From the IMG/VR virus record IMGVR_UViG_3300027672_001707: a DNA stretch of 64,000 bases, one strand, 5' to 3'. The DNA is from an uncultured virus (IMG/VR IMGVR_UViG_3300027672_001707) (lineage: Duplodnaviria > Heunggongvirae > Uroviricota > Caudoviricetes). This document shows positions 15,981-44,010 of the stretch, one piece after another; positions within the stretch are counted from its first letter, which is position 1; each line of letters begins with the position of its first letter. A model generated the notes under the pieces. That model was not told the DNA's origin. It searched no databases and saw only the letters and a program-made list of their open reading frames with translations. Both the position numbers and the translations under genes were made by a program.

Positions 15981-16940
15981 ATGGCTGGAACTAAAAGAGT
16001 AATTAACATTGGTACAAACGCAGACGACGGTACAGGCGACTTACTTCGTGCGGCATTTGAAAAAATCAATTTAAACTTCGACGATGTGTGGACATATGAT
16101 GCAGTTAATAGTAATTTAAATATTACTGCTGACAGTATCGCAGGAACAACTGATGTTATCATGAATCCTGCAGATTCAGGTGCTTTTAAAGTAACCGGCG
16201 ATACAATTATTAATCCAAACAACGGTAATTATAACTTTACTATTAACACAGACTTAGCAAGTAACGTTTTATATGTTAAAGGAAGCAATGGTTTTGTTGG
16301 TATTAAAAATAATGCTCCAACAGTAGCACTTGACGTAACAGGTGATATTACGAGTTCCGGAACAATGACTGCTGGTAGTTTTGTAGTAGGTAATACAACA
16401 CTTGGTGCCAGTGCATCAAACACTATTACATTTAATGCAAAATCAAGCACAGACTTTTTACCAGTAAGTACTACACAAAACCTTGGCGGAGGAACTAATC
16501 GTTGGGGAGCTCTTAACGTAGTAAACGTAGATGCTAGTGGTAGTATTAGTGGTACATTTACTGGTGTTATGACAAGTACAATGACAGCAGACATTAATAA
16601 CACTGACACAACTAGTGTTAACATAACTGCAACAGGTGCCACAAACGTTCAAAACTTAAACGTAGCGGGTAATTTAGTTGTACAAGGTACAACTACTACA
16701 TTAGAAACAACTGATGTTATAGTACAGAACCAGTTAACATTTGAAGGTGCAACTGCTGATGATTTTGAAACAACATTAACAGTTACAGACCCAACTGCTG
16801 ATAGAACAATTACATTTAAAGACGAAAACGGTACAGTAGCATTAGTAACTGATATCACAATTACTTTAGCAACGTTAAAATCAACTGTCGCGGCAAGTAC
16901 AGACTTCGCTGATTTTCAGACGAGAATAGCGGCACTATAG
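15981..16940 (+). CDS. virion baseplate/tail-fibre protein
   Basis: INIGTNADDGTGDLLRAAFEKINLNF; Thr/Gly-rich. Confidence 0.8.
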   Translation: MAGTKRVINIGTNADDGTGDLLRAAFEKINLNFDDVWTYDAVNSNLNITADSIAGTTDVIMNPADSGAFKVTGDTIINPNNGNYNFTINTDLASNVLYVKGSNGFVGIKNNAPTVALDVTGDITSSGTMTAGSFVVGNTTLGASASNTITFNAKSSTDFLPVSTTQNLGGGTNRWGALNVVNVDASGSISGTFTGVMTSTMTADINNTDTTSVNITATGATNVQNLNVAGNLVVQGTTTTLETTDVIVQNQLTFEGATADDFETTLTVTDPTADRTITFKDENGTVALVTDITITLATLKSTVAASTDFADFQTRIAAL

Positions 16941-16974
16941 TATATAAATACTAGTGTAATTAAAGGATAATTTA

Positions 16975-19293
16975 ATGGCGGCACCAGTTTGGTACACAAC
17001 CACAAGTAACCTAGGCGTAATACAAGAAGGTCAATTCTACAGATTCTCTTTAGACGCAAGAGACCCGTCTTCGGGTGTTATTGCGTATTCAGTTGTTTCT
17101 GGAACATTACCTGACGGTATCGAACTAGCAAGTAATGGTACATTATTTGGTAACCCTAGAAAGGTTATCCAAGGCGTACCTGTGGAAGTAAGCAGAGATG
17201 TTGCCAGCAAGTTCACTATTAGAGCAAAAGATTCAACCGGTATTGTTAACGACAAAACATTCCAATTAATCGTTACAGGACAAGACGTTCCAGTATGGGA
17301 AAGTGCATCAGATTTAGGTGACTTTATAGATTTCCAGTATATTAATAAAAAGATTATAGTAAATGACAGCGATAGTGAAGATACACTAACATACGAATTG
17401 TTAAGTGGTACATTGCCTGTTGGAACAAAGTTGACAACCGATGGTTATGTTAACGGATTTATTCAACCACAGTTAGTAGACGGATCAAGTGAAGCAGGAA
17501 GTTTTGATACTTCAGCATTTGATACAGTTATATTCGACTTTGGTACAGGTGTTGGTAGTTACAGTAAAAGACATCACTTTGTTGTTAGAGCAAGTGACGG
17601 TAAAGCATTTATCGTTAAGGAATTTAGTATATATGTATATGGTGCATTTGATTTAAAAGCAGATAGTAACACAATTACTGCTGATAAAGATGACAACTTA
17701 ATCCAATCAGATACAAGTAGTGCATATGGTCCAATTATTAGACACAGTGCAACTAAAATTGGAACATTCTTGCACGACAATATGTTTAGTTTTAAAGTAG
17801 ATGCTATTGACTACAGTGGCGCCGATATTACATACAGTATTGAAAGTGGAGCAACACCATCGGGATTAACTATTGATTCTGGAACAGGTTGGATACATGG
17901 TAAACTTCCATACTTAAACAAAGTTATACAAGATTATTCATTTACAGTTAAAGCGGCAAGAACAAGCGATGCGGCTAACTTTAGTGATACACATACGTTT
18001 ACAATGCAATTAATAACTAATAAAGATTTAGATATTACTTGGAATACTGTTAAAAATTTAGGCATATTACAAGCCGGTGCAGTTAGTACATTGTATGTAA
18101 ATGCAAGTAGTAAGAACAATACAAAACTTATATACGAACTACAAGCAGGTAGTAAACTGCCACAAGGACTACTACTAAACTCCACTGGAGAATTAGAAGG
18201 CAGAGCAAGTTTTAAAACATTCCAAATGGACTCAGGAACAACAAAATTAGATGTGGTAACTAGTTCAGCAACAACTACAGTTGATGGAACATATAATTTT
18301 ACAATTAAGGCAAGAGATAATACAGGTACATTGTACAATACTAGAACATTTAGTGTTGTAGTTAAGAACGAGTATAGTGCTCCTTATGAAGACTTATATA
18401 TCGACTTATTGCCTACACAAACTGATAGAAACATATGGGAAAATGTTATCTATAATAGACAGGATATCCCAGACGAAGATTTATACAGAGCAAGAGACAT
18501 TTACTTTGGTAGACAAGCATACCCAAGAATGTTGTTTTTACCAGGACTACCAGCAAACACATTGAGCAAGTACTTTGAAAGTGTTTATAGAAACCATCAT
18601 AACATAAATTTACGTTTTGGTGACTTTAAAACTGCAAAAGCAACTGACAACGATAACAATCATATATATGATGTTGTGTATGTTGAAGTACTAGACAAAT
18701 TCGACGCTCCAGCAGGAACAACGTTAACAACTAGTAACTTAGAAATTAAATACTCAAGTATTAATAACCCTATTACTGCTGATGAGTCTGCACACATTGA
18801 AAACTCTACATTAAGAGCAAGTGCAAACAATAACAAAATTTTATATCCAGCAAGTTTAAGTCGTATGAAAAAACGTGTTGAAGATAAACTAGGTATCCAG
18901 GATAGTAGAACACTTCCACGTTGGATGACTAGTGTACAAGATGATGGAACCATTTTAGGATTCACTAGTGCGTGTGTTATTGCATATTTGAAACCAGGTG
19001 CAGGTAAACGTATTCTTTATTACCTAAGTATTAACGATGGTGTTGACTTAAACAAGATTGATTTTACAGTAGATAGATATGTAGTTGACCAATACTTTAG
19101 TAAAAACTACGATAAAACTAGTAGTCCAACAGCATGGTTAGTAGGTGGAGAAACAACGTTTGATTCGACTACAACTAGTGTAGATAGTACAAATACAAGA
19201 TTTTTCCCTAATATCGACGTAAGACGCACAGATATTACCGAAGGTAATCATTATATTAAATTCCCAAGAGTTCAGATAATAGACTTACCTTAA
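16975..19293 (+). CDS. virion structural protein with repeated Ig-like (He_PIG-type) domains
   Basis: repeated GxLPxGxxL..xG...FTxxAxD units; TATAAATA at 16943. Confidence 0.8.
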   Translation: MAAPVWYTTTSNLGVIQEGQFYRFSLDARDPSSGVIAYSVVSGTLPDGIELASNGTLFGNPRKVIQGVPVEVSRDVASKFTIRAKDSTGIVNDKTFQLIVTGQDVPVWESASDLGDFIDFQYINKKIIVNDSDSEDTLTYELLSGTLPVGTKLTTDGYVNGFIQPQLVDGSSEAGSFDTSAFDTVIFDFGTGVGSYSKRHHFVVRASDGKAFIVKEFSIYVYGAFDLKADSNTITADKDDNLIQSDTSSAYGPIIRHSATKIGTFLHDNMFSFKVDAIDYSGADITYSIESGATPSGLTIDSGTGWIHGKLPYLNKVIQDYSFTVKAARTSDAANFSDTHTFTMQLITNKDLDITWNTVKNLGILQAGAVSTLYVNASSKNNTKLIYELQAGSKLPQGLLLNSTGELEGRASFKTFQMDSGTTKLDVVTSSATTTVDGTYNFTIKARDNTGTLYNTRTFSVVVKNEYSAPYEDLYIDLLPTQTDRNIWENVIYNRQDIPDEDLYRARDIYFGRQAYPRMLFLPGLPANTLSKYFESVYRNHHNINLRFGDFKTAKATDNDNNHIYDVVYVEVLDKFDAPAGTTLTTSNLEIKYSSINNPITADESAHIENSTLRASANNNKILYPASLSRMKKRVEDKLGIQDSRTLPRWMTSVQDDGTILGFTSACVIAYLKPGAGKRILYYLSINDGVDLNKIDFTVDRYVVDQYFSKNYDKTSSPTAWLVGGETTFDSTTTSVDSTNTRFFPNIDVRRTDITEGNHYIKFPRVQIIDLP

Positions 19294-29319: not shown

Positions 29320-29358
29320 CACTTTGAGTAAAGATGCTATTATAGTATTATAAGTTAA
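29316..29358 (+). promoter_or_regulatory. early promoter, 16-bp spacer, TAAGTTAA leader
   Basis: TTGACA 29316, TATTAT 29338, TAAGTTAA 29351. Confidence 0.8.
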
Positions 29359-32262: not shown

Positions 32263-32314
32263 TTGACAACATGGCTAGTTGTGTTATACTTGTAGTATAA
32301 GTTAAACAACGGAG
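32263..32314 (+). promoter_or_regulatory. early promoter, 16-bp spacer, TAAGTTAA leader
   Basis: TTGACA 32263, TATACT 32285, TAAGTTAA 32298, GGAG. Confidence 0.85.
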
Positions 32315-32320
32315 TTGCTC

Positions 32321-32799: not shown

Positions 32800-32853
32800 T
32801 TGACAAGTACTGTAGATGTGCTATTATAAAGTATAAGTTAAACAACAGGAGAT
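32800..32853 (+). promoter_or_regulatory. early promoter, 16-bp spacer, TAAGTTAA leader
   Basis: TTGACA 32800, TATTAT 32822, TAAGTTAA 32834, AGGAGAT 32847. Confidence 0.85.
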
Positions 32854-32857
32854 ACTA

Positions 32858-33292
32858 ATGTTTACAGATACAGTTAAAAAAACACCAGAATACAAGTTTA
32901 ATGATGAATTTGGTGATATCGAATCCTTAAAATTCGAAGATGTTTCGCAATTTGAACTAGAACATGAACATTATGATGATCTTAAAACTTCATTAAACTA
33001 TGATACCGTTTGGAGTTTAGATAGTGGTATTCTTCAATTGGATCAAAAAATATTTATCGATAAGCCTTTTATTGTTACATACAAAGTAATCAAAGATATG
33101 TCTGATGATTTTCAAACTACTACCTATCAAACATTCACTGCCGTTACTAAAGATGGTACAGTAGGTGAACTTTGGAAAGCCGCTGAAAACTGCTTTCAAC
33201 AAGCCAAGTTAGCATTAAATGATTGGCACTACTTTGTCGAAGATCTTGTAATGCAAGAAGATGGAACACTACAACTAGTTACAGGAAGTTAG
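32858..33292 (+). CDS. early hypothetical protein
   Basis: promoter and RBS; DWHYFVE...LVTGS C-terminus. Confidence 0.75.
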   Translation: MFTDTVKKTPEYKFNDEFGDIESLKFEDVSQFELEHEHYDDLKTSLNYDTVWSLDSGILQLDQKIFIDKPFIVTYKVIKDMSDDFQTTTYQTFTAVTKDGTVGELWKAAENCFQQAKLALNDWHYFVEDLVMQEDGTLQLVTGS

Positions 33293-33422
33293 AATATGAT
33301 AAAACTTTTAATTAAGAAAATGTTATTAGGCGATAAGTCTGCTGAACAGAAATTAATTACCAACCACGGATTAACACAAACCGATATTGCTAAAATTAAG
33401 AAATATAGTTATAATTAAAAGG

Positions 33423-33451
33423 TTGACAAAGCCTTTAATTTGTTGTATTAT
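33423..33451 (+). promoter_or_regulatory. sigma70-type promoter, 17-bp spacer
   Basis: TTGACA-17-TATTAT. Confidence 0.7.
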
Positions 33452-33482
33452 AAACGTAGTTAAAAAATAGAGAGAATACAAA

Positions 33483-34214
33483 ATGAAAAAAGAAACTTTT
33501 ACATTTACCAAAGTATTAACACTAGCATTTGTGGCTCAACGTTTTAATAAGTCTTATAATAAGCACACTACATCATCTATGACTGCAAACGATACTATAA
33601 AGTATTCAGTTGCAAACAAACAAATTATGCGATTCCTAACTGGCAATGAGCAAGGTATGGAACTTGGTGTAATTAATCATTTAAAGAAGAACGAAAAGAA
33701 ACTTCGTATTACCGAAGCAGACGAAAAGAATACATCTGAAGCAGTTGAATGGTTAGAATCTCTTGCAATGGGAGTTCTTTCCGGAGAAATCAACGGCTTT
33801 GACAGTAGTATCTATATGACCTTTGAAAAAGGAGAACTTCAACATTTTGATTTTGGTTTAGTTGCATATATGCCACAAACTTATATCCGTAATGTTAAGA
33901 AAGAGAATTTAGAACTTAGAATTACACAACGTTGTGAAGACAGCGAATATATTTCTAAGCCTGGTCATAAGGTTAACCTAAACATTGAACTACAAACAGG
34001 TGTTTATAGTTCTAACTACAGTAGTTTCATTTATGTTGCAATAACAGACAATGATGAACTAGTTACGTTTTGGAGCCAAAAAGACTTTTTAGATGCAGTA
34101 GGTAAAACTGTTAATATCACTGCAAAGGTTAAAAAGCAAATGAGTAGTCGTTGGTATCAAGGTATTAACGAAACTCAATTAAATTATGTTAAATTAGTAG
34201 AGGAAAGCAAATGA
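33483..34214 (+). CDS. hypothetical protein with C-terminal OB-fold-like domain
   Basis: SEYISKPG.KV...ITAKVK...ETQLNYVK. Confidence 0.7.
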   Translation: MKKETFTFTKVLTLAFVAQRFNKSYNKHTTSSMTANDTIKYSVANKQIMRFLTGNEQGMELGVINHLKKNEKKLRITEADEKNTSEAVEWLESLAMGVLSGEINGFDSSIYMTFEKGELQHFDFGLVAYMPQTYIRNVKKENLELRITQRCEDSEYISKPGHKVNLNIELQTGVYSSNYSSFIYVAITDNDELVTFWSQKDFLDAVGKTVNITAKVKKQMSSRWYQGINETQLNYVKLVEESK

Positions 34215-34414
34215 CAGATAATGTACAAGAACGCATGATGGAACTTTGCGAGCCTATTGATGAAACAATAATGAGTCTAACAAATCACGAAGATGCCCTT
34301 ATGCTGGCGTGTGCAATGCTAGAGAAAGTGAAAACTATCTTAGATGCACAAATTGGTGTTAAAGGACGATATGAGATCATTGCATCTGCTAACACTATTA
34401 AATTAGATTCATAA
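34211..34414 (+). CDS. hypothetical protein
   Basis: GAGG RBS; ATGA overlap. Confidence 0.7.
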   Translation: MTDNVQERMMELCEPIDETIMSLTNHEDALMLACAMLEKVKTILDAQIGVKGRYEIIASANTIKLDS

Positions 34415-34419
34415 AGTTT

Positions 34420-34490
34420 ACGGTACGATCTCCTTCTTAACTTACGCCGAGCCTCTCAGAGTGGTACCGTCTCTGGGAGGTTCATTTTTT
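34420..34490 (+). ncRNA. candidate structured small RNA ending in an intrinsic terminator
   Basis: 13-bp stem 34449-61/34471-83 plus T6; loop GTACCGT pairs with ACGGTAC 34420-26; intervening segment GATCTCCTTCTTAACTTAC is anti-SD and anti-leader. Confidence 0.55.
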
Positions 34491-34516
34491 ATACACTCAT
34501 TGAAAGGAATACATAT

Positions 34517-34684
34517 ATGGCAATGACTGAAGAAGAAATAGTTAATTATAACGAACAAGTAAAACTATGGTTAGCAAAGGGCAATAAGATTACGCAATGC
34601 CCTGCAGGCGAACGTACAGAGGATATAACAAAGATAAATCGTTGGAAAGGACGACCAAAGAAAAAGGTTGACAAGTCGGCGTAA
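34517..34684 (+). CDS. 55-aa basic protein (absent from ORF track)
   Basis: AAGGA RBS; ...WLAKGNKITQCPAG... Confidence 0.7.
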   Translation: MAMTEEEIVNYNEQVKLWLAKGNKITQCPAGERTEDITKINRWKGRPKKKVDKSA

Positions 34685-34721
34685 TGTGTTATACTTGTAT
34701 AGTAAGTTAAATTAATAAGGA
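34668..34721 (+). promoter_or_regulatory. early promoter, 16-bp spacer, GTAAGTTAA leader
   Basis: TTGACA 34668, TATACT 34690, TAAGTTAA 34703. Confidence 0.85.
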
Positions 34722-34725
34722 AAGA

Positions 34726-35307
34726 ATGAAGTTGAAAAAAATTATATTAACAGATGCGGATGGTGTGCTTCTTAATTGGGAGTTTGCATTCAATTGTTGG
34801 ATGGAAAATCACGGATTTAAAACTACTAAAGGATATCAGTTCAAATACGATATGGCTGAACGATACGGTATTCCAAAGACTCAGGTTAAGACACTAATTA
34901 AGCAATTTAATGAAAGTGCAACTATTGGGTTTTTGCCTGCTCTACGTGATGCAGTACAGTACGTTACTAAACTAGCAGACGAAGGATGGGAATTCCATTG
35001 TATTACTTCTTTAAGTAATGACAAGTATGCACAACGTTTAAGGCAAAAGAACTTAGACAAGTTATTTGGTAAAGGAGTATTTACTAAATTAGTTTGTTTA
35101 GGAACTGGAGACGACAAAGACGAAGCATTGTCTGTTTACAAGAATTCTAAGATGTGGTGGATTGAAGACAAACCTGAGAACGCCGAAGCAGGCGCCAAAG
35201 CAGGACTTAAACCATTACTTGTAGAGCATGGTCATAATATGAACGGTGACTACAATTACCCTATCGTTAAAGATTGGGAACAGATTTATAACACAGTTAC
35301 AGCCTAA
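34726..35307 (+). CDS. HAD-family 5'-nucleotidase/phosphatase
   Basis: LTDADGVLL, ITS, IEDKPEN. Confidence 0.88.
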   Translation: MKLKKIILTDADGVLLNWEFAFNCWMENHGFKTTKGYQFKYDMAERYGIPKTQVKTLIKQFNESATIGFLPALRDAVQYVTKLADEGWEFHCITSLSNDKYAQRLRQKNLDKLFGKGVFTKLVCLGTGDDKDEALSVYKNSKMWWIEDKPENAEAGAKAGLKPLLVEHGHNMNGDYNYPIVKDWEQIYNTVTA

Positions 35308-35339
35308 TAAGGTTGCAGTGTCCGGAACACTGCACCTTA
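35308..35339. terminator. hairpin between convergent genes
   Basis: TAAGG-T-TGCAGTGT-CCGGA-ACACTGCA-CCTTA. Confidence 0.7.
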
Positions 35340-35355
35340 ATTAATAAGTTATTTT

Positions 35356-36081
35356 TTAATCATCATCACCATATATTTCTAACACTTCGGCAACTGCTGG
35401 ATGACGTTCTATGTCACTATGCGAAAACTGTACACATTCGATATGATTTGAATCTCTCGTTTGTACAAGTTGCATAAAGTTTAAAAGTCCGTTATCCTTG
35501 TTCTTTCGATCGGCTTGCTTAACATCTCCGGTTACTACAATTTTACTTCCTTCGCCTATACGGGTCAATAGCATCTTCATCTGATTTGGCGTTGCATTTT
35601 GCATTTCGTCAGCGACGATATATGCATTTTTAAATGTGCGACCACGCATGAATGCTAGGGGTGATATTTCGATGATTTGTTCTTCTAGCATCTTGGCTGT
35701 TTCTTTAGGGGAGTAATATTCATGTAAAACATCGAACAATGGACGAGTCCACGGTTCCATTTTTTGATTGAGATCGCCTGGCAAAAATCCATGTCTCTCG
35801 TCGTCAACACCGACCGCCGGACGTGTCATAATAATCTTATCTATTGTACCTTGTTTATAATGTTTAATAGCCGAAAGCATAGCAATCATAGTTTTACCTG
35901 TGCCTGCTGGACCTGATGCAAATACAATACTCTTGTTTGACGTGAGTAAAGCATCTACATAAGATTCTTGCGTTCTACTTCTAGGAATAATAGTAACATT
36001 TTTCTTATGTCGTTGGTTTTGATCGTTGGTATCTTGTGAGATATACATATATTCTTCTTTATTGCGTCTACGTTTGCCCAA
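35356..36081 (-). CDS. phoH: PhoH-family ATPase
   Basis: GPAGTGKT, GFLPGDL, FMRGRTF, DEMQN, GDVKQAD; AGGAGG RBS, TTG start. Confidence 0.95.
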   Translation of the reverse strand: MGKRRRNKEEYMYISQDTNDQNQRHKKNVTIIPRSRTQESYVDALLTSNKSIVFASGPAGTGKTMIAMLSAIKHYKQGTIDKIIMTRPAVGVDDERHGFLPGDLNQKMEPWTRPLFDVLHEYYSPKETAKMLEEQIIEISPLAFMRGRTFKNAYIVADEMQNATPNQMKMLLTRIGEGSKIVVTGDVKQADRKNKDNGLLNFMQLVQTRDSNHIECVQFSHSDIERHPAVAEVLEIYGDDD

Positions 36082-36230
36082 TTTGAACCTCCTGAGTTTC
36101 TGTTAGGGTATACAAATTATGTTGTATACTTAATAATATTTAACACTGTAGATCCAACAATAACCAATAATACATAAGGCCCAATGAAAAGGATAAATAC
36201 TTTGAGTAACGAAAAGACGGTAAGTAACAC

Positions 36231-36743
36231 ATGAAATCAAACAATATTGTAACAAACGTCAATAAGCTCTATCAAGCAGAGAGTTTTATGACAACATTAG
36301 TAGACTTTGAACGTGTCTTAGACAGTGTTCATTTATATGCCTACGAAAACTGGTTGAAGGGCGAATTAGTAGAGGGTCCTAAGGTTGATAAACACTGGGT
36401 AACTTGTACATTCATGTGGCCTCATAAGATGATGCCTGAGCCCCAAGGAGCAAAAAGACTCCTAGACTATAATATTAAAGTACGTTACAAAAAAGATATT
36501 CTAGAAAGTCCAGTCACTATTAAAGCACCAGAAGATATGGCCCCAGGCGGCAGGTATCCTAAAATGAAATCTGATCCTATTTGGTTAGTTGAAATTAGAA
36601 TGCCAAAAACAATCATGTCTGACATTTATCGTGGTACTATGGAACTAGAAGGTGAGAAAATTGATCTAGATGATATCAACACTGCATATCAACAAGATTT
36701 AGACTTTGATGGAACAACTGATGACAACACCGAAGCAGAATAA
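36231..36743 (+). CDS. late hypothetical protein
   Basis: late promoter 36193. Confidence 0.75.
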   Translation: MKSNNIVTNVNKLYQAESFMTTLVDFERVLDSVHLYAYENWLKGELVEGPKVDKHWVTCTFMWPHKMMPEPQGAKRLLDYNIKVRYKKDILESPVTIKAPEDMAPGGRYPKMKSDPIWLVEIRMPKTIMSDIYRGTMELEGEKIDLDDINTAYQQDLDFDGTTDDNTEAE

Positions 36744-39308: not shown

Positions 39309-40028
39309 ATGTTTAACCCTGGAATATATGATCCGGGGGTACAACAAGAATACAAAGACCATTTCGCTAACAAGGGCTGGTTAGCCGTAGACAACATCCT
39401 AACACACGAATTCATTACATCAGTTTACGCATCGGTACCTACACTCGAATACGACTACAGAGGCGGAGTTGGTGATTGGTATGAAACTGTACCTTCCACA
39501 AAACCTGCAGAAGGAGAACTGCTAAAGCAGAAAATCCTTCATGGCAATCCTAATAATGATAAGTTTTCCTATTTTCACAGAGTAGCAATGATTCGAAGAG
39601 ATGGTTATTTCGAATGTCAAAATACAGATGAGTTTGCATCCAATGTTGGAAATACTAAAGGTGACAGCACGTTTAAAGAATGGGTAGAAAATGTTACACA
39701 GTTTGATAACTTGTTTACTACATTCCCCACATTTAGTTACTATAGTTACGATAACTGGATCACCCCACATTATGATCCTACTAGAAAAGTTGCTTTTTTG
39801 TTTTACTTTAATGAAGAATGGAGAGCAGAATGGGGTGGACAACTATGTTTAACAGATGAACATAACAAAGTACACACTACAATAGCACCCGCAGGCAACA
39901 GATTAGTGCTCTTAGATGTGTCAAAGACGTCGTTTAACAAGCATTTTGTTAGTCCAGTTAGTTTTGTAGCACCTAAACCACGTTATAGTTTAGTAGGTTG
40001 GTATAGCGAAAGAAACCTTAAAAAATAG
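39309..40028 (+). CDS. 2OG-Fe(II) oxygenase (prolyl-hydroxylase-like)
   Basis: PHYD...WGGQL...HFVSPV...RYSLVGW. Confidence 0.85.
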   Translation: MFNPGIYDPGVQQEYKDHFANKGWLAVDNILTHEFITSVYASVPTLEYDYRGGVGDWYETVPSTKPAEGELLKQKILHGNPNNDKFSYFHRVAMIRRDGYFECQNTDEFASNVGNTKGDSTFKEWVENVTQFDNLFTTFPTFSYYSYDNWITPHYDPTRKVAFLFYFNEEWRAEWGGQLCLTDEHNKVHTTIAPAGNRLVLLDVSKTSFNKHFVSPVSFVAPKPRYSLVGWYSERNLKK

Positions 40029-40082
40029 CCATCTACGATAAATATCAGTGTAGTTAAGAAAACACACTAGGAGATCGTATCT

Positions 40083-40376
40083 ATGGATTCACAAACAAAA
40101 AAGATCAACATCGAACTTGAAGTTGATACCAAAACAGTAGACAGTAGCAAGAACCCTTTTCAATGGTTAATATTTTTAGCAAAAGCAGTAGACAGTTGGA
40201 GAATATTCCCAAGAGCATTTTTGACTGTATACATAGTATTACTATACAAAGTAGTATTATGGTACATGAATTTAGATGCACCGAGTATGGAACAATCAGG
40301 TCTTGTTTCAATCGTAGTTGGTGCTGGCGCGGCTTGGTTTGGTTTATACACTGGAACTTCCAAAAACAAAAGTTAA
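40083..40376 (+). CDS. two-TM membrane protein (holin-like candidate)
   Basis: two hydrophobic helices, basic C-terminal tail; late promoter 40038. Confidence 0.65.
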   Translation: MDSQTKKINIELEVDTKTVDSSKNPFQWLIFLAKAVDSWRIFPRAFLTVYIVLLYKVVLWYMNLDAPSMEQSGLVSIVVGAGAAWFGLYTGTSKNKS

Positions 40377-40419
40377 ATAAAGACTTGCATCTTTACTCTA
40401 GATGTAGTATAATATATTC

Positions 40420-41217
40420 ATGAGTAACTATTATACAACCTTAGGCGTTAACGCAAACGCCACACAGTCAGAGTTAAAGAAGGCATACAAAAAGTTAAGT
40501 ATGACTCATCACCCGGACAAAGGTGGTGATGCAGAACAGTTTAAGGCAATTAACGAAGCCTACTCTACACTTAAAGATCCTGCCAAAAGACAACAGTACG
40601 ATAATCCTGCACCACAAGGTTGGCAACAGGGTTGGGCCGCTGGCGAAGATGCACCTGATATTTCAGATATGTTTGCACATATGTTTGGTAAAGGATTTCA
40701 ACGTCCTGGACAAGCAGGACGCCGTGGACAAGATGTTAATTTAACAATGCCAATGACACTAGAGGAAATTGCTAGTGGTATAAAGAAAACTATATCAGTT
40801 ACAGTTGCAGGCAAAGAAAAGATTATACAAGTTGATATACCGCCAGGTGTACCAAGAGGACAACGAATTAGATATGCAGGTGAAGGTAATCCAGGTGCAG
40901 TACCAGGTGACCTATTATTAAATATCAAAGAGTTACCACATCATCGTTTTGAACGACAAGGTAACGACATATACAGTATGCAAGAAATAAGTGTATGGGA
41001 AGCATTAATAGGCACAGAGAAAGAACTTACAACTGTTAACGAACGTAAGATAAAATACAAGATTCAACCCGGTTCACAACCCGAAAGTCGTGTAAAATTA
41101 GCACATCAGGGCATAAACCAAGGACATCACTACATTATTCTTCATATTAATGTACCTAAGGACTTGACAGATCAGCAAAAACAAGTTATATTAAGTATAA
41201 TGAATGGACAATTATGA
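40420..41217 (+). CDS. dnaJ: DnaJ/CbpA-type co-chaperone (no zinc finger)
   Basis: J-domain HPD; GDL and C-terminal domain; leaderless after TTGCAT-17-TATAAT. Confidence 0.92.
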   Translation: MSNYYTTLGVNANATQSELKKAYKKLSMTHHPDKGGDAEQFKAINEAYSTLKDPAKRQQYDNPAPQGWQQGWAAGEDAPDISDMFAHMFGKGFQRPGQAGRRGQDVNLTMPMTLEEIASGIKKTISVTVAGKEKIIQVDIPPGVPRGQRIRYAGEGNPGAVPGDLLLNIKELPHHRFERQGNDIYSMQEISVWEALIGTEKELTTVNERKIKYKIQPGSQPESRVKLAHQGINQGHHYIILHINVPKDLTDQQKQVILSIMNGQL

Positions 41218-41687
41218 GACTAACAAAAGAACTGTTAAATATTACTACACAACCTGTGGTGTTTGATACCTTTGCACAGAAAATAGAAAACGAACGTTTA
41301 TCTGTTATTATGTTTGGATTTATGAGAGAATCAAATGGTATTGGACTAGCCGCAAATCAAGTAGGAATAGATACTAGTTTGTTTGTATCATTTGTAGACG
41401 GAAAATATAATGCTTATTACAACCCTGTGTTACTAGAATGGGGAGATGAATTAAGTAAGTTTGACGAAGGCTGTTTAAGTTTTGCAGGCGAAAGCATTAT
41501 AGTAGAAAGACCTGAATGGATTAAACTAGAATGGCAAGACCATAAAGGAAACAAAAGTAAGAAAATATTAGATGGGATAAATGCTAGAGTGTGTTTACAT
41601 GAATACGATCACTTAAAAGGCATTACGTTCCAACAAAGAGTTAACAATACAAATATACCGGAAGAGTTATTATATGTTAAGACCTAA
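41214..41687 (+). CDS. def: peptide deformylase
   Basis: GIGLAANQVG, EGCLS, HEYDHLKG. Confidence 0.95.
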   Translation: MRLTKELLNITTQPVVFDTFAQKIENERLSVIMFGFMRESNGIGLAANQVGIDTSLFVSFVDGKYNAYYNPVLLEWGDELSKFDEGCLSFAGESIIVERPEWIKLEWQDHKGNKSKKILDGINARVCLHEYDHLKGITFQQRVNNTNIPEELLYVKT

Positions 41688-44010
41688 CCCAGAAATAGAA
41701 ATGATAGTCGAAAAGGCTAGTGAGTTCGCGGCAAAATACGGACACACATATGTTACAACTGAACACTTATCACTTGCGTTAATCAACTATAAAAACTTTA
41801 GGATTATGATCGAAGAGTATGGCTCAGATTGGCAAGGACTTAATGATGCATTTGTAAAGTATCTTACAGAAAACAACTTTGGTAAAAAGACAGCAGAAGG
41901 TAAAGAGATTAAACTTCTAAGAACTCATGCATTAGAACGTGTATTCAACAGAGCATATACACAAGTGCTATTTGGTGGCAGAGAGCATATGCAAACGATA
42001 GATATCTTTTTAAGTATCTGTCAAGAGGACAAAGGTTATTCAGTATTCTTGTTCAAAAAGTTTGGTATTGGCAAACAAGCATTAGTTGATTTCTTTAATG
42101 AAACTTATGTACATGACAATCCACATATGGATGCATTAGATAAGGAAGAAGCAGAACGTACATTAGATGAGTTCTGTGTAGACTTAAACAAGTTAGCAAA
42201 AAATGGCGAAATTGATCCTGTTATCGGTAGACAGTTTGAAATTGATGAACTGTGTCAAATACTAGGTAAAAGAAACAAAAGTAACGTACTACTAGTTGGC
42301 GATCCCGGTGTTGGTAAAACTGCTATTGCAGAAGGACTAGCAAACAAAATTATTAATGGCGAAGTACCTGAGTACTTAAAAGAAGCAACAATCTACAGTT
42401 TAGATATTGGTGGATTAGTTGCAGGTAGTAAGTACAGAGGCGAGTTCGAAGAAAAAATTAAAGACGTATTTGAAAGTTTACAAGCCAAAAAAGGTAGTAT
42501 TGTATTCATCGATGAAGCACATACTATGAGAGGTGCAGGTGCTACTAGTGGTAGTGGTCCTGACTTTGCACAAATGGTTAAGCCTTATATTACCAGAGGA
42601 CTAAGAGTTATTGCAAGTACAACCTGGGAAGAATACAATACAAGTTTTGAAAAAGACAGAGCATTAATGAGAAGGTTCTACAGACTAACAGTAGATGAAC
42701 CAACTCCAGGTGTTGCTAAAGATATCCTTAAAGGATTAAAGAAATACTTTGAAGAGTATCATACTGCAAAAATTACAGTAGATGCAATTAATGCCGCAGT
42801 TGATTTAAGTGTAAGGTTCCAAACTGATAAACGTTTACCTGATAAAGCAATTGACTTAATAGATAGTGCTTGTGCTAAACAACGGTTATTAAACAGAAGT
42901 AACTTTAAAATTACAAAGCAACAAATACTTGAAGAATTAAGTAAAGCAGTTAAGATACCTGTAGACCAATTAGGTAGTTCTAGTAGTGGAGTCAAAGAAG
43001 AAGAAGATTTAGACGACATTCAAAGCAAAATTAAACACGAACTATACGGACAAGACAAAGCAGTTGACACAATTATGGATAGAGTAATTGTAACAAGAGC
43101 AGGATTAAAATCACACAGTAAGCCAGTCGGAAGTTACTTACTAGTAGGACCAACAGGTACTGGTAAAACAGAGTTGGCTAAACTATTAAGTGAAAACTTA
43201 CATATGAAATTGTTAAGATTTGATATGGGAGAGTACCAAGAGAAGCACACAGTGGCTAGACTTATTGGAGCACCTCCAGGATATGTAGGATACGAAGATG
43301 GTAACTTAGGTGGTGGTTTACTTGTAAGCCAAGTTGAAAAGAATCCTAATGCTATTATCTTGTTTGATGAAATTGAGAAAGCACACCCTGACGTTACTAA
43401 CGTATTACTATCGTTAATGGACGAAGGATTTGTAACAAGTACAAACGGTAAAAGAGCAGATGCTCGAAACTGTATTATATTGTTAACAAGTAACTTAGGT
43501 GCTAAAGAATCTGAGAAGCGAGGTATTGGCTTTAACTCTGCAGAAGAGAATGACAATGCAAGTACAGAAGAAGTTAAAAAGTTCTTTGCTCCTGAATTTA
43601 GAAACAGATTAGACGGAATGATTAAGTTTAATAAACTGGATCAAGGCATTATGCGTAAGATTGTTATTAAGTTTATTGACGAGATAAACGAACTAATGAT
43701 TGAAAAAGGATTGCACATTACTATTGGCGAAAGTGCAGTAGAGGAACTTGCTAAACGTGGGTACGATCCATTGATGGGTGCAAGACCTTTGAAACGTGTA
43801 ATTGAAAACGATATTAAAATTCCGTTATCCAAAGCAATTATAAAAGACAAGCCTATTGCAGGAACTAAAATTATGTTAAACTTTGTAAAAGACAAGTTCG
43901 ATTTTGAATATAAAGTTGAAGATAACATTGTTGATAAAGTTGCACCAGCACCAGGCGTTGACCCAAACGGGTTGATTGTACTGGATCAATTCAAACCAAA
44001 AGCAGTATAG
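41674..44010 (+). CDS. clpA: ClpA-type AAA+ unfoldase
   Basis: two Walker A motifs (GDPGVGKT, GPTGTGKT); GYVG pore loop; IGF ClpP-docking loop; no ClpB middle domain. Confidence 0.9.
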   Translation: MLRPNPEIEMIVEKASEFAAKYGHTYVTTEHLSLALINYKNFRIMIEEYGSDWQGLNDAFVKYLTENNFGKKTAEGKEIKLLRTHALERVFNRAYTQVLFGGREHMQTIDIFLSICQEDKGYSVFLFKKFGIGKQALVDFFNETYVHDNPHMDALDKEEAERTLDEFCVDLNKLAKNGEIDPVIGRQFEIDELCQILGKRNKSNVLLVGDPGVGKTAIAEGLANKIINGEVPEYLKEATIYSLDIGGLVAGSKYRGEFEEKIKDVFESLQAKKGSIVFIDEAHTMRGAGATSGSGPDFAQMVKPYITRGLRVIASTTWEEYNTSFEKDRALMRRFYRLTVDEPTPGVAKDILKGLKKYFEEYHTAKITVDAINAAVDLSVRFQTDKRLPDKAIDLIDSACAKQRLLNRSNFKITKQQILEELSKAVKIPVDQLGSSSSGVKEEEDLDDIQSKIKHELYGQDKAVDTIMDRVIVTRAGLKSHSKPVGSYLLVGPTGTGKTELAKLLSENLHMKLLRFDMGEYQEKHTVARLIGAPPGYVGYEDGNLGGGLLVSQVEKNPNAIILFDEIEKAHPDVTNVLLSLMDEGFVTSTNGKRADARNCIILLTSNLGAKESEKRGIGFNSAEENDNASTEEVKKFFAPEFRNRLDGMIKFNKLDQGIMRKIVIKFIDEINELMIEKGLHITIGESAVEELAKRGYDPLMGARPLKRVIENDIKIPLSKAIIKDKPIAGTKIMLNFVKDKFDFEYKVEDNIVDKVAPAPGVDPNGLIVLDQFKPKAV

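Follow-up and report, generated by a model that had tools for sequence, protein, structure and literature searches.

A structured RNA of a large marine phage with a conserved segment complementary to leaders and Shine-Dalgarno sequences of the phage's own genes

Phage antisense RNAs and the element at 34417–34490

Temporal control of gene expression in large virulent phages is usually attributed to proteins, through sigma-factor replacement, RNA polymerase modification, or nucleases, and to our knowledge the antisense RNAs of phages come nearly all from temperate phages and act on single genes. Bacterial small RNAs (sRNAs) of the CpxQ and SroC type, which derive from 3′ untranslated regions (3′UTRs), carry a seed just upstream of the terminator of the mRNA and act by base pairing, and the icaR 3′UTR of Staphylococcus aureus contains an anti-Shine-Dalgarno (anti-SD) pyrimidine motif that pairs with the SD sequence of its own 5′UTR and represses translation. 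The antisense RNAs of type I toxin-antitoxin systems, such as IstR-1/tisB and Orz/zor, are encoded beside their targets; the c4 RNA of phages P1 and P7 arises by processing of a longer precursor, a comparable case being the CI RNA of phage P4. The c4 antisense RNA presents sequences in its loops that pair around the ribosome-binding site of ant mRNA and block its translation (PMC12197685). The element considered here lies on the plus strand at positions 34417–34490 of a 64,000-nucleotide (nt) stretch of DNA (hereafter the window) from an uncultured phage, IMG/VR record IMGVR_UViG_3300027672_001707. It is a member of a structured-RNA family not previously described, and its complementarity to phage start regions suggests that its RNA probably controls translation of the phage's own mRNAs by pairing with them.

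Structure and conservation of the RNA family

The element had been singled out in an original prediction, made from the letters of the window, as a candidate sRNA directed against early genes, and its anatomy agrees with that description. The open reading frame (ORF) 34211–34414 ends with a stop codon at 34412–34414, directly upstream. A conserved 5′ flank at 34417–34419 (AGTT-T/A-A before ACGG, with RAGTTnACGG kept in 12/12 homologs) is a possible RNase E-type processing site, judging by the consensus of such sites. The 5′ arm ACGGTAC (34420–34426) is complementary to GTACCGT at 34464–34470 in the loop of the downstream hairpin. Between the two lies the seed (34427–34448), which combines an anti-spacer GAT, the anti-SD CTCCTT(C) at 34430–34436, and the anti-leader TTAACTTA at 34437–34444; the adjoining arrangement of anti-SD and anti-leader was found as claimed, with GATCTCCTTCTTAACTTAC at 34427–34445 and CTCCTT at 34430–34435. 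The hairpin (34449–34483) has a stem of 13 base pairs (bp), 34449–34461 with 34471–34483, including two G-U pairs, and a 9-nt loop TGGTACCGT at 34462–34470, and is followed by a T6 run at 34485–34490 that forms the tail of an intrinsic terminator in the window phage. With its GC-rich stem and T6, the hairpin fits the description of a rho-independent terminator. It is not listed by a simple terminator scan allowing loops of 3–8 nt because its loop is 9 nt long.

The plus-strand RNA folds at -23.9 kcal/mol (z = -2.70), which 4 of 200 shuffles equal, and the seed is left unpaired in this predicted fold, as had been proposed. The minus-strand fold is not above chance (z = -0.40, 69/200 shuffles as good). 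That strand codes merely for MNLI-stop (ATG-AAT-CTA-ATT-TAA), in line with the original prediction; a gene start or RNA on the minus strand was rejected, there being no promoter, no start codon within SD range, and a fold no better than shuffles.

An exact 17-mer search recovered homologs in three related contigs, G001–G003, and in one contig identical to the window, and covariance-model searches together with two pattern scans added G005 (identical to G044), G012, G043, and five further metagenome variants. The resulting covariation alignment comprises 12 distinct sequences from related marine jumbo-phage contigs, in which standard pairs occupy 99.1% of pair cells, compared to 78.2 ± 1.8% in shuffles and 35–44% in slid controls. 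Twelve of the 19 pairs change on both sides, and 0/500 shuffles reach any of the covariation measures, so that the structure proposed from a single sequence is supported across the homologs. In the hairpin, two-sided compensatory changes are found in 11 of the 12 stem pairs, with 98.6% of cells paired. The proposed pairing of the loop with the 5′ end is also borne out, with compensatory changes and all seven pairs formed in 12/12 sequences: arm and loop read ACGGTAC/GTACCGT in eight sequences, ACGGTAG/CTACCGT in two, and ACGGTAA/TTACCGT in two, the last pair thus being C-G, G-C, or A-U, respectively. This varying position was left free by the search patterns, and the pseudoknot lay outside the model. 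Matched arm/loop energies are -9.0, -8.9, and -7.3 kcal/mol, compared to -7.0 and -7.1 for swapped arms. A hairpin loop that pairs outside its stem with covariation corresponds to an H-type pseudoknot; in the predicted form the loop pairing directly adjoins the 3′ stem. Since the recurrent G-U pairs would be A-C mismatches on the opposite strand, the function is placed on the plus-strand RNA.

The seed is under strong sequence constraint in relatives. The 26-nt core ACGGTACGATCTCCTTCTTAACTTAC is identical in seven clade-A variants (26/26 nt) that carry at least five different stems, and the neighbouring proteins are less conserved (52–62% identity for a 55-amino-acid protein and up to 87–88% for others). 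Across the family, the invariant parts are the arm, the loop, and the UCCUU and UAACU letters. The probability that the seed is unpaired is 0.84–0.86 in clade A and 0.47–0.62 in clade B. In the clade-B elements (L034, L140, L262, and L279), the 5′ arm region GGTAGTTA can alternatively pair with the anti-leader part TAACTAT to give a small hairpin with the anti-SD in its loop, at which the unpaired probability falls to the clade-B values. A run of at least four T residues follows the stem in seven of the 12 homologs and is weak in two and absent in three; termination is therefore not the conserved function.

These patterns bear on the simplest alternative, in which the hairpin is an ordinary intrinsic terminator or 3′ stabiliser and the resemblance of its spacer to an anti-leader is either accidental or left over from an inverted leader copy. 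The GC-rich stem with T6 directly after a stop codon would suit it, as would two results on the leader word detailed below, namely that TAAGTTAA is not enriched overall and that the leaders do not stand out when duplex energies are taken over the whole genome. However, conservation is strongest in the spacer, the stem accumulates compensated changes, the 5′ arm varies together with the loop, a U-tract is missing from three of 12 homologs, and the seeds, though different in each of three clades, are anti-leader throughout, with 0/1000 shuffles as good on leaders. We consider this explanation very improbable.

The family is narrowly distributed, with one element per genome. Rfam at the gathering threshold yields only four tRNAs in the window, and at E values up to 10 over 34330–34580 it returns three noise matches far under the cut-offs and no family, C4 included. 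Among 22 loci reached via the neighbouring HAD-like gene, only the four closest contain the element, and among 37 further related records searched with model R2, G012 was the only real match. A loose pattern scan of viral contigs gave, among the matches listed, four of 80 loci that fitted the model. Three other candidates were discarded: a match of model R2 in G033 (E 0.068) that has no hairpin on inspection, a match of model R1 in G004 (20.8 bits) that is an unrelated terminator, and L277, a chance match. The family thus does not extend beyond a sub-clade in which the DNA polymerase shares ~70% identity or more with that of the window phage. In the next clade, the only match to one anti-leader word in G004 and in the 91%-complete G016 is the leader itself on the opposite strand, which is a weak negative, as the clade's promoter-plus-leader pattern returned nothing though at least one match was expected.

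Leader matching, predicted targets and competing explanations

The region around the element holds very strong sigma-70-type promoters of the form TTGACA-16-TGnTAnnnT, and seven with 11/12 matches lie between 29 and 35 kb. The leader word TAAGTTAA is present at all six positions for which it had been reported (2025, 2369, 29351, 32298, 32834, and 34703). As a bare word it is not enriched (11 matches versus 9.16 expected; 32/100 shuffles reach 11), but its placement is non-random: six of its eight plus-strand copies lie 5–7 nt past the -10 box of 11/12-match promoters. Genome-wide, 16 plus-strand copies combine the promoter, TAAGTTAA, and an SD, arranged as a short A-rich linker, AAGGAG(AT), and a start codon, and the sole promoterless inverted copy of TAAGTTAA plus SD is the element. 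The leader at 29351 has no clear SD. The pairings of 8+8 nt at 2369 and 8+7 nt at 32834 given in the original prediction are both correct.

The correspondence between seed and leader extends to other clades. The complement of the clade-A seed is GTAAGTTAAGAAGGAGATCGTA, that is, GTAAGTTAAG-AAGGAGATCGTA, that of the clade-B seed is GTATAGTTAG(A/T)TAAGGAATAA, and that of the clade-C seed is GATGTAAGTTTTAAAGGAGATAA. In clade B, the leaders read GTATAGTTA and the element seed reads CTAACTATAC; transcripts beginning GTATAGTTA(G/A) at clade-B promoters number two in G005, one in G012, one in G043, and two in G011. One such promoter lies ~150 nt from the G005 element and another heads the G043 unit that contains the element. 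Counts of promoter-proximal words, made with a relaxed promoter rule and for fragments only, are 31 TAAGTTA versus 4 TATAGTTA in clade A and 3 versus 6 unique in clade B. The seed type therefore appears to follow the leader type across clades, and the seeds of clades B and C differ yet stay anti-leader and anti-SD, a conclusion supported by these comparisons. Complementarity and the clade-wise co-variation of seed with leader type are, like the structure and its conservation, shown by the sequence comparisons.

Energies point in the same direction for defined targets. Against 27 own promoter leaders, the seed gives a mean of -10.96 kcal/mol compared to -6.06 ± 1.00 for shuffled controls, and 0/1000 shuffles are as low, so that on leaders the comparison with shuffles favours the prediction. 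The clade-A seed reaches means of -10.79 on 18 leaders of G001–G003 and -7.45 on 13 clade-B leaders, and clade-B seeds give -8.8 to -9.4 on B leaders versus -7.9 to -8.5 on A leaders. When targets were cofolded with the whole folded element, class leaders gave changes in free energy (ΔΔG) of -10.4 to -13.2, with 1–4 of 200 shuffled targets as good. Examples are the promoter and leader TAAGTTAAACAACAGGAGAT at 32800–32860 (plus strand, as are those that follow), at the start of ORF 32858 (ΔΔG -10.4; 1/200), the promoter and leader TAAGTTAAACAAATAAGGAGAT at 2334–2400, at the start of ORF 2398 (-13.2; 1/200; rank 19 of 409 start regions), and the promoter and leader at 1990–2052 with TAAGTTAA at 2025 (-10.9; 4/200); a further leader-class promoter and leader lie at 32263–32320 (TAAGTTAA at 32298). 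The leader of the downstream HAD-like gene at 34668–34728 (GTAAGTTAA at 34702) gives -11.1 with 31/200 shuffles as good, and the leader of the element's own transcription unit, behind the nearest upstream promoter TTGACA-17-TATTAT at 33423–33482, gives -10.4 with 23/200.

When 409 crudely called start regions were ranked, the 21 that belong to the leader class had a mean of -11.70 versus -6.54 for the rest (Mann-Whitney p = 2e-8) and occupied 11 of the top 28 ranks (2, 3, 4, 6, 11, 12, 14, 15, 19, 25, and 28). In 6/6 genomes scanned (G000, G001, G003, G005, G012, and G043), the top predicted targets are promoter leaders or a membrane-protein start region, and in clade B they are promoter leaders. 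The leader signal appears only with targets limited to start regions or in the comparison with shuffles. With unrestricted RNAduplex over both genome strands, the leaders (-11 to -17) are not singled out, an outcome that, taken alone, the original prediction had itself named as speaking against it, in the form of pairing energies no better than shuffled.

The strongest predicted target lies at 40031–40085 on the plus strand, where the motif GATAAATA is followed by GTAGTTAAGAA, a 9-nt gap, AGGAGATCGTA, TCT, and the ATG of a 97-amino-acid two-helix membrane protein (40083–40376). This leader is exactly complementary to the element over 9 + 11 nt, reaching into the 5′ arm. Its cofold ΔΔG is -25.2, with 0/200 shuffles as good, and it ranks 1 of 409 at -25.5, 5.8 standard deviations from the mean. 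The start region of the orthologous gene is also rank 1 in G001 and G003 (the three energies being -25.5, -23.3, and -26.6), and the 11-mer is kept in G002 and G003, with a one-base insertion in G001. In G005, the ortholog has a 10-nt match AAGGAATAAA to the changed seed and ranks merely 7, at -9.3. The motif GATAAATA or NATAAATA occurs as a second promoter-like motif at most 70 nt upstream of 40 of the 409 start regions, very large genes included, and examples from a genome-wide motif scan lie at 40031–40040, 16940–16975, and 36195–36231. It resembles the T4 late promoter TATAAATA, a likeness suggesting that late genes form a class of T4 style next to the early, sigma-70-type one. GGAGATCGTA occurs at just one other place in the genome, a start region behind TATAAATA that ranks 7.

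The 97-amino-acid protein belongs to phrog_10198 and has two hydrophobic helices and a charged C-terminus, a topology that gives a holin-like impression. Its gene sits between a 2OG-Fe(II) oxygenase gene and the genes for DnaJ and peptide deformylase. These belong to a set of host-like auxiliary genes at 39309–44010 and 35356–36081, which also includes those for a Lon-type ATP-dependent protease (phrog_4871) and PhoH; the PhoH gene is exceptional in this phage genome in lying on the minus strand.

The high rank of this start region raises the question of whether the element might be dedicated to controlling a single membrane-protein gene or a few of them, either type I antitoxin-like or a brake on lysis timing, with the likeness to the leader class as a by-product. 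The best clade-A target in 3/3 genomes would be explained in this way, as would the 10-nt match kept at the G005 ortholog of the 97-amino-acid gene and the G005 locus itself, where the RNA gene is immediately followed by a promoter and a gene for a 55-amino-acid hydrophobic protein. The leader of that gene is rank 1 (-20.8), and the homolog of the protein is rank 2 in G043. However, the two membrane proteins have no relationship to each other, clade A lacks the small one, the G005 ortholog is only seventh, and the TTAACTTA part of the seed matches at least 16 other leaders. Membrane proteins are also not enriched among the top 20 targets (0.20 versus 0.137 overall). A dedicated membrane-gene regulator is thus held to be unlikely.

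The gene context argues for an independent RNA gene. In clade A, the element lies between a gene for a 240-amino-acid protein and one for a 55-amino-acid basic protein, ORF 34211–34414 being an insertion specific to the window lineage. In G005 it follows a cold-shock-protein (csp) gene, ends in a U-run, and is preceded at ~75 nt by a TTGACA-17-TGTTATACT promoter of its own, without an intervening ORF; the adjacent promoter and hydrophobic-protein gene provide the top predicted target. The csp gene also precedes it in G012, where it continues directly into a gene for a secreted protein. In G043 (L262 2398–2483) it begins 17 nt past tRNA-Leu(UAA), which suggests that the RNA might be released there by tRNA-processing enzymes and is reminiscent of the small stable RNAs in the T4 tRNA cluster. 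The own promoter in G005 and the tRNA adjacency in G043 indicate an independent RNA gene rather than just a terminator.

A further possibility is a cis-acting 3′UTR element of the icaR type, in which the anti-SD pairs with the 5′ leader of its own mRNA and adjusts how that operon alone is translated or degraded. The element does form the 3′ end of the transcript of the 240-amino-acid gene in the window and clade A; the leader of this gene in G001 (GTATAGTTAAGAAGAAGGAGAG) ranks 3 at -17.7 with two 10-nt matches, and in G043 the rank-1 leader heads the element's own transcription unit. In the window, by comparison, the own-unit leader does not surpass shuffles, the G005 RNA has its own promoter and its best targets in other units, and the sequence is kept while the upstream genes vary (240-amino-acid gene, csp gene, tRNA). 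On balance this explanation seems quite improbable. Another cis candidate, sequestration of the SD of the downstream 55-amino-acid gene, was rejected at a ΔΔG of -4.5 with 114/200 shuffles as good, the downstream genes differing between clades.

A structured RNA could also have another task, such as binding of a phage or host protein through a functional core formed by the pseudoknot, or the site could be an inverted operator copy at the DNA level that overlaps the leader. The invariant arm, loop, and UCCUU/UAACU letters are compatible with this, as is the conserved 55-amino-acid basic protein encoded right after the element in clade A, and the motif in the leaders might for its part serve as a site at the DNA level or for a protein. 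Nevertheless, the G-U pairs and compensatory changes favour RNA over DNA, the clade differences within the seed track the leader differences, which a fixed protein site would not require, and the gene for the basic protein is unlinked to the element in clades B and C. Such alternatives together have, in our estimate, a low probability. The basic-protein gene (34517–34684, plus strand) follows the element in all clade-A relatives by synteny, and its product has an invariant WLAKGNKIT-C...RWKG..KKVDK; Pfam gives no support in 5/5 homologs. A language-model look-alike to SutA RNA polymerase-binding domains (score 0.84), standing apart from Pfam, is a lead only. In relatives (L004 574–699 of G001; L006 and L009), an ORF of 41 amino acids with a lipoprotein-type signal (…LSLGAC|STVAGVGKD…) lies upstream of the 240-amino-acid gene and may encode an entericidin-type small lipoprotein.

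The window is part of a 306,714-bp virus record estimated at 87% complete with ~35% G+C, whose genes lie nearly all on a single strand and whose DNA polymerase is 41–49% identical to those of Atu_ph07, Phosso, and 121Q-type jumbo phages, which are distant protein relatives only; megablast of 33400–35400 against GenBank phages gave no match. Window and genome record show nine single-base differences (e.g., 1307, 10636, 30486, and 32329), none within the element, and are therefore near-identical variants. The phage DNA is present in marine metagenomes, and four marine metatranscriptome runs from three studies contain pieces of 33300–35500 at 100% identity; stretches left uncovered there do not argue for absence. 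Contig X17 (depth 2.8) spans 34318–34501, that is, the ORF end and the whole element, and stops 11 nt past the T-run; this is a weak hint, as strand, ends, and level are not resolvable from it and DNA carry-over is possible.

Proposed mechanism and comparison with known systems

From the pairing and comparative data, we regard base-pairing control of phage start regions in trans by the element RNA as a reasonably probable account. In the window phage, the sigma-70-type promoter at 33423 (or 32800) would drive an early transcript that has the RNA at its 3′ end, and processing just 5′ of ACGG would probably release it, while in G005 the RNA would come from its own promoter. The 7-nt 5′ arm could pair with the loop of the 3′ hairpin to form a pseudoknot-like lock, the hairpin doubling as intrinsic terminator in the window phage, and the arm/loop pairing and hairpin together may hold open a seed of ~20 nt that comprises the anti-spacer, the anti-SD with its UCCUU core, and the complement of the leader motif. 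This seed would pair with the extreme 5′ end and SD of phage mRNAs and thereby block 30S binding, and the RNA-mRNA duplex might be marked for RNase III. The predicted targets are the TAAGTTAA early leader class and, most strongly, the late-type membrane-protein start at 40083. Discrete release of the RNA, its trans action, repression, and timing are what we infer, not what was observed.

Class-wide early shut-off, as put forward in the original prediction, would account for less than half of the probability given to trans base pairing. Its fullest form is tentative: the shared 5′ leader might serve as the address for one phage RNA, which, as it accumulates from an early transcript, would pair with leader and SD, shut the whole class, and restrain the late holin-like membrane protein. 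Equally tentatively, this would amount to temporal control without a protein, leader and seed evolving together like lock and key from one phage clade to the next.

Several observations weigh against base-pairing control in trans or restrict its scope. The strongest predicted target is not an early leader but the start of the 97-amino-acid membrane protein behind a T4-late-like ATAAATA motif. Pairing with the leaders is interrupted (8 + 8 bp around a 3–6-nt internal loop) and modest (-10 to -13 kcal/mol), 1268 windows genome-wide reach -11 or lower, many of them random and between -17 and -24, and neither the adjacent HAD leader nor the leader of the element's own transcript rises above shuffles. 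The evidence from clades B and C comes from genome fragments (11–24% complete) with few promoters, and clade C offers a single leader, which matches its seed merely in part. As for the structure, six of the seven pseudoknot pairs are invariant, an invariance partly imposed by the search patterns, and the alignments were fitted to the hairpin model, which favours the hairpin pair counts. Since three of the 12 homologs are without a U-tract and two more have weak ones, a discrete 3′ end is not assured in the three. The RNA-library contigs are of low depth and cannot resolve transcript ends, levels, or strand. Finally, the complete G004 and the 91%-complete G016 of the next clade are without an element homolog, so that the mechanism is not general to the phage group.

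If the RNA acts as predicted, an uncultured marine phage would encode a regulon-wide post-transcriptional switch, and the conserved leader would be explained as the address of the RNA. The design is compact, with a swappable seed set between a pseudoknot lock and a terminator in ~70 nt, and the new RNA family can now be searched for in phage metagenomes. In the full-text literature searched, subscription journals and supplements apart, no RNA of a virulent phage was found that targets a leader common to a class of promoters.

Compared to bacterial 3′UTR-derived sRNAs of the CpxQ and SroC type, the element has a similar position at an mRNA 3′ end, a shared terminator hairpin, a conserved single-stranded seed, and a possible RNase E-type 5′ edge, but it is phage-encoded, its predicted targets are phage genes, and in relatives it has its own promoter or is tRNA-adjacent. 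With icaR it shares an anti-SD pyrimidine motif in a 3′UTR able to pair with an SD; however, the leader of its own transcript is a poor partner in the window, and the seed adds specificity for the leader motif of many mRNAs. The arrangement in G005, where the RNA gene lies beside a promoter and a small hydrophobic protein gene and is complementary to its leader and SD, recalls IstR-1/tisB and Orz/zor, whereas the hydrophobic neighbour is absent in clade A and many further targets are predicted. An adjacent small hydrophobic gene covered by the RNA, as in type I systems, was found only in G005 and, ~550 nt away, in G043, and the window genome has no homolog of it.

By analogy, c4 of P1 and P7 is the closest known system in function. 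Like the element, c4 is a phage-encoded structured antisense RNA with exposed segments directed around a ribosome-binding site, the trans action of the element being predicted. There is no sequence or Rfam relationship between the two, and c4 serves temperate-phage immunity with ant as single target, whereas the element belongs to a large, apparently virulent marine phage. Furthermore, unlike c4, the element has a seed that matches the leader of at least 16 promoters plus a late gene and that is held between an arm/loop pairing and a terminator hairpin. Collectively, the element can be viewed as a variation on phage antisense regulation with a plausible mechanism.

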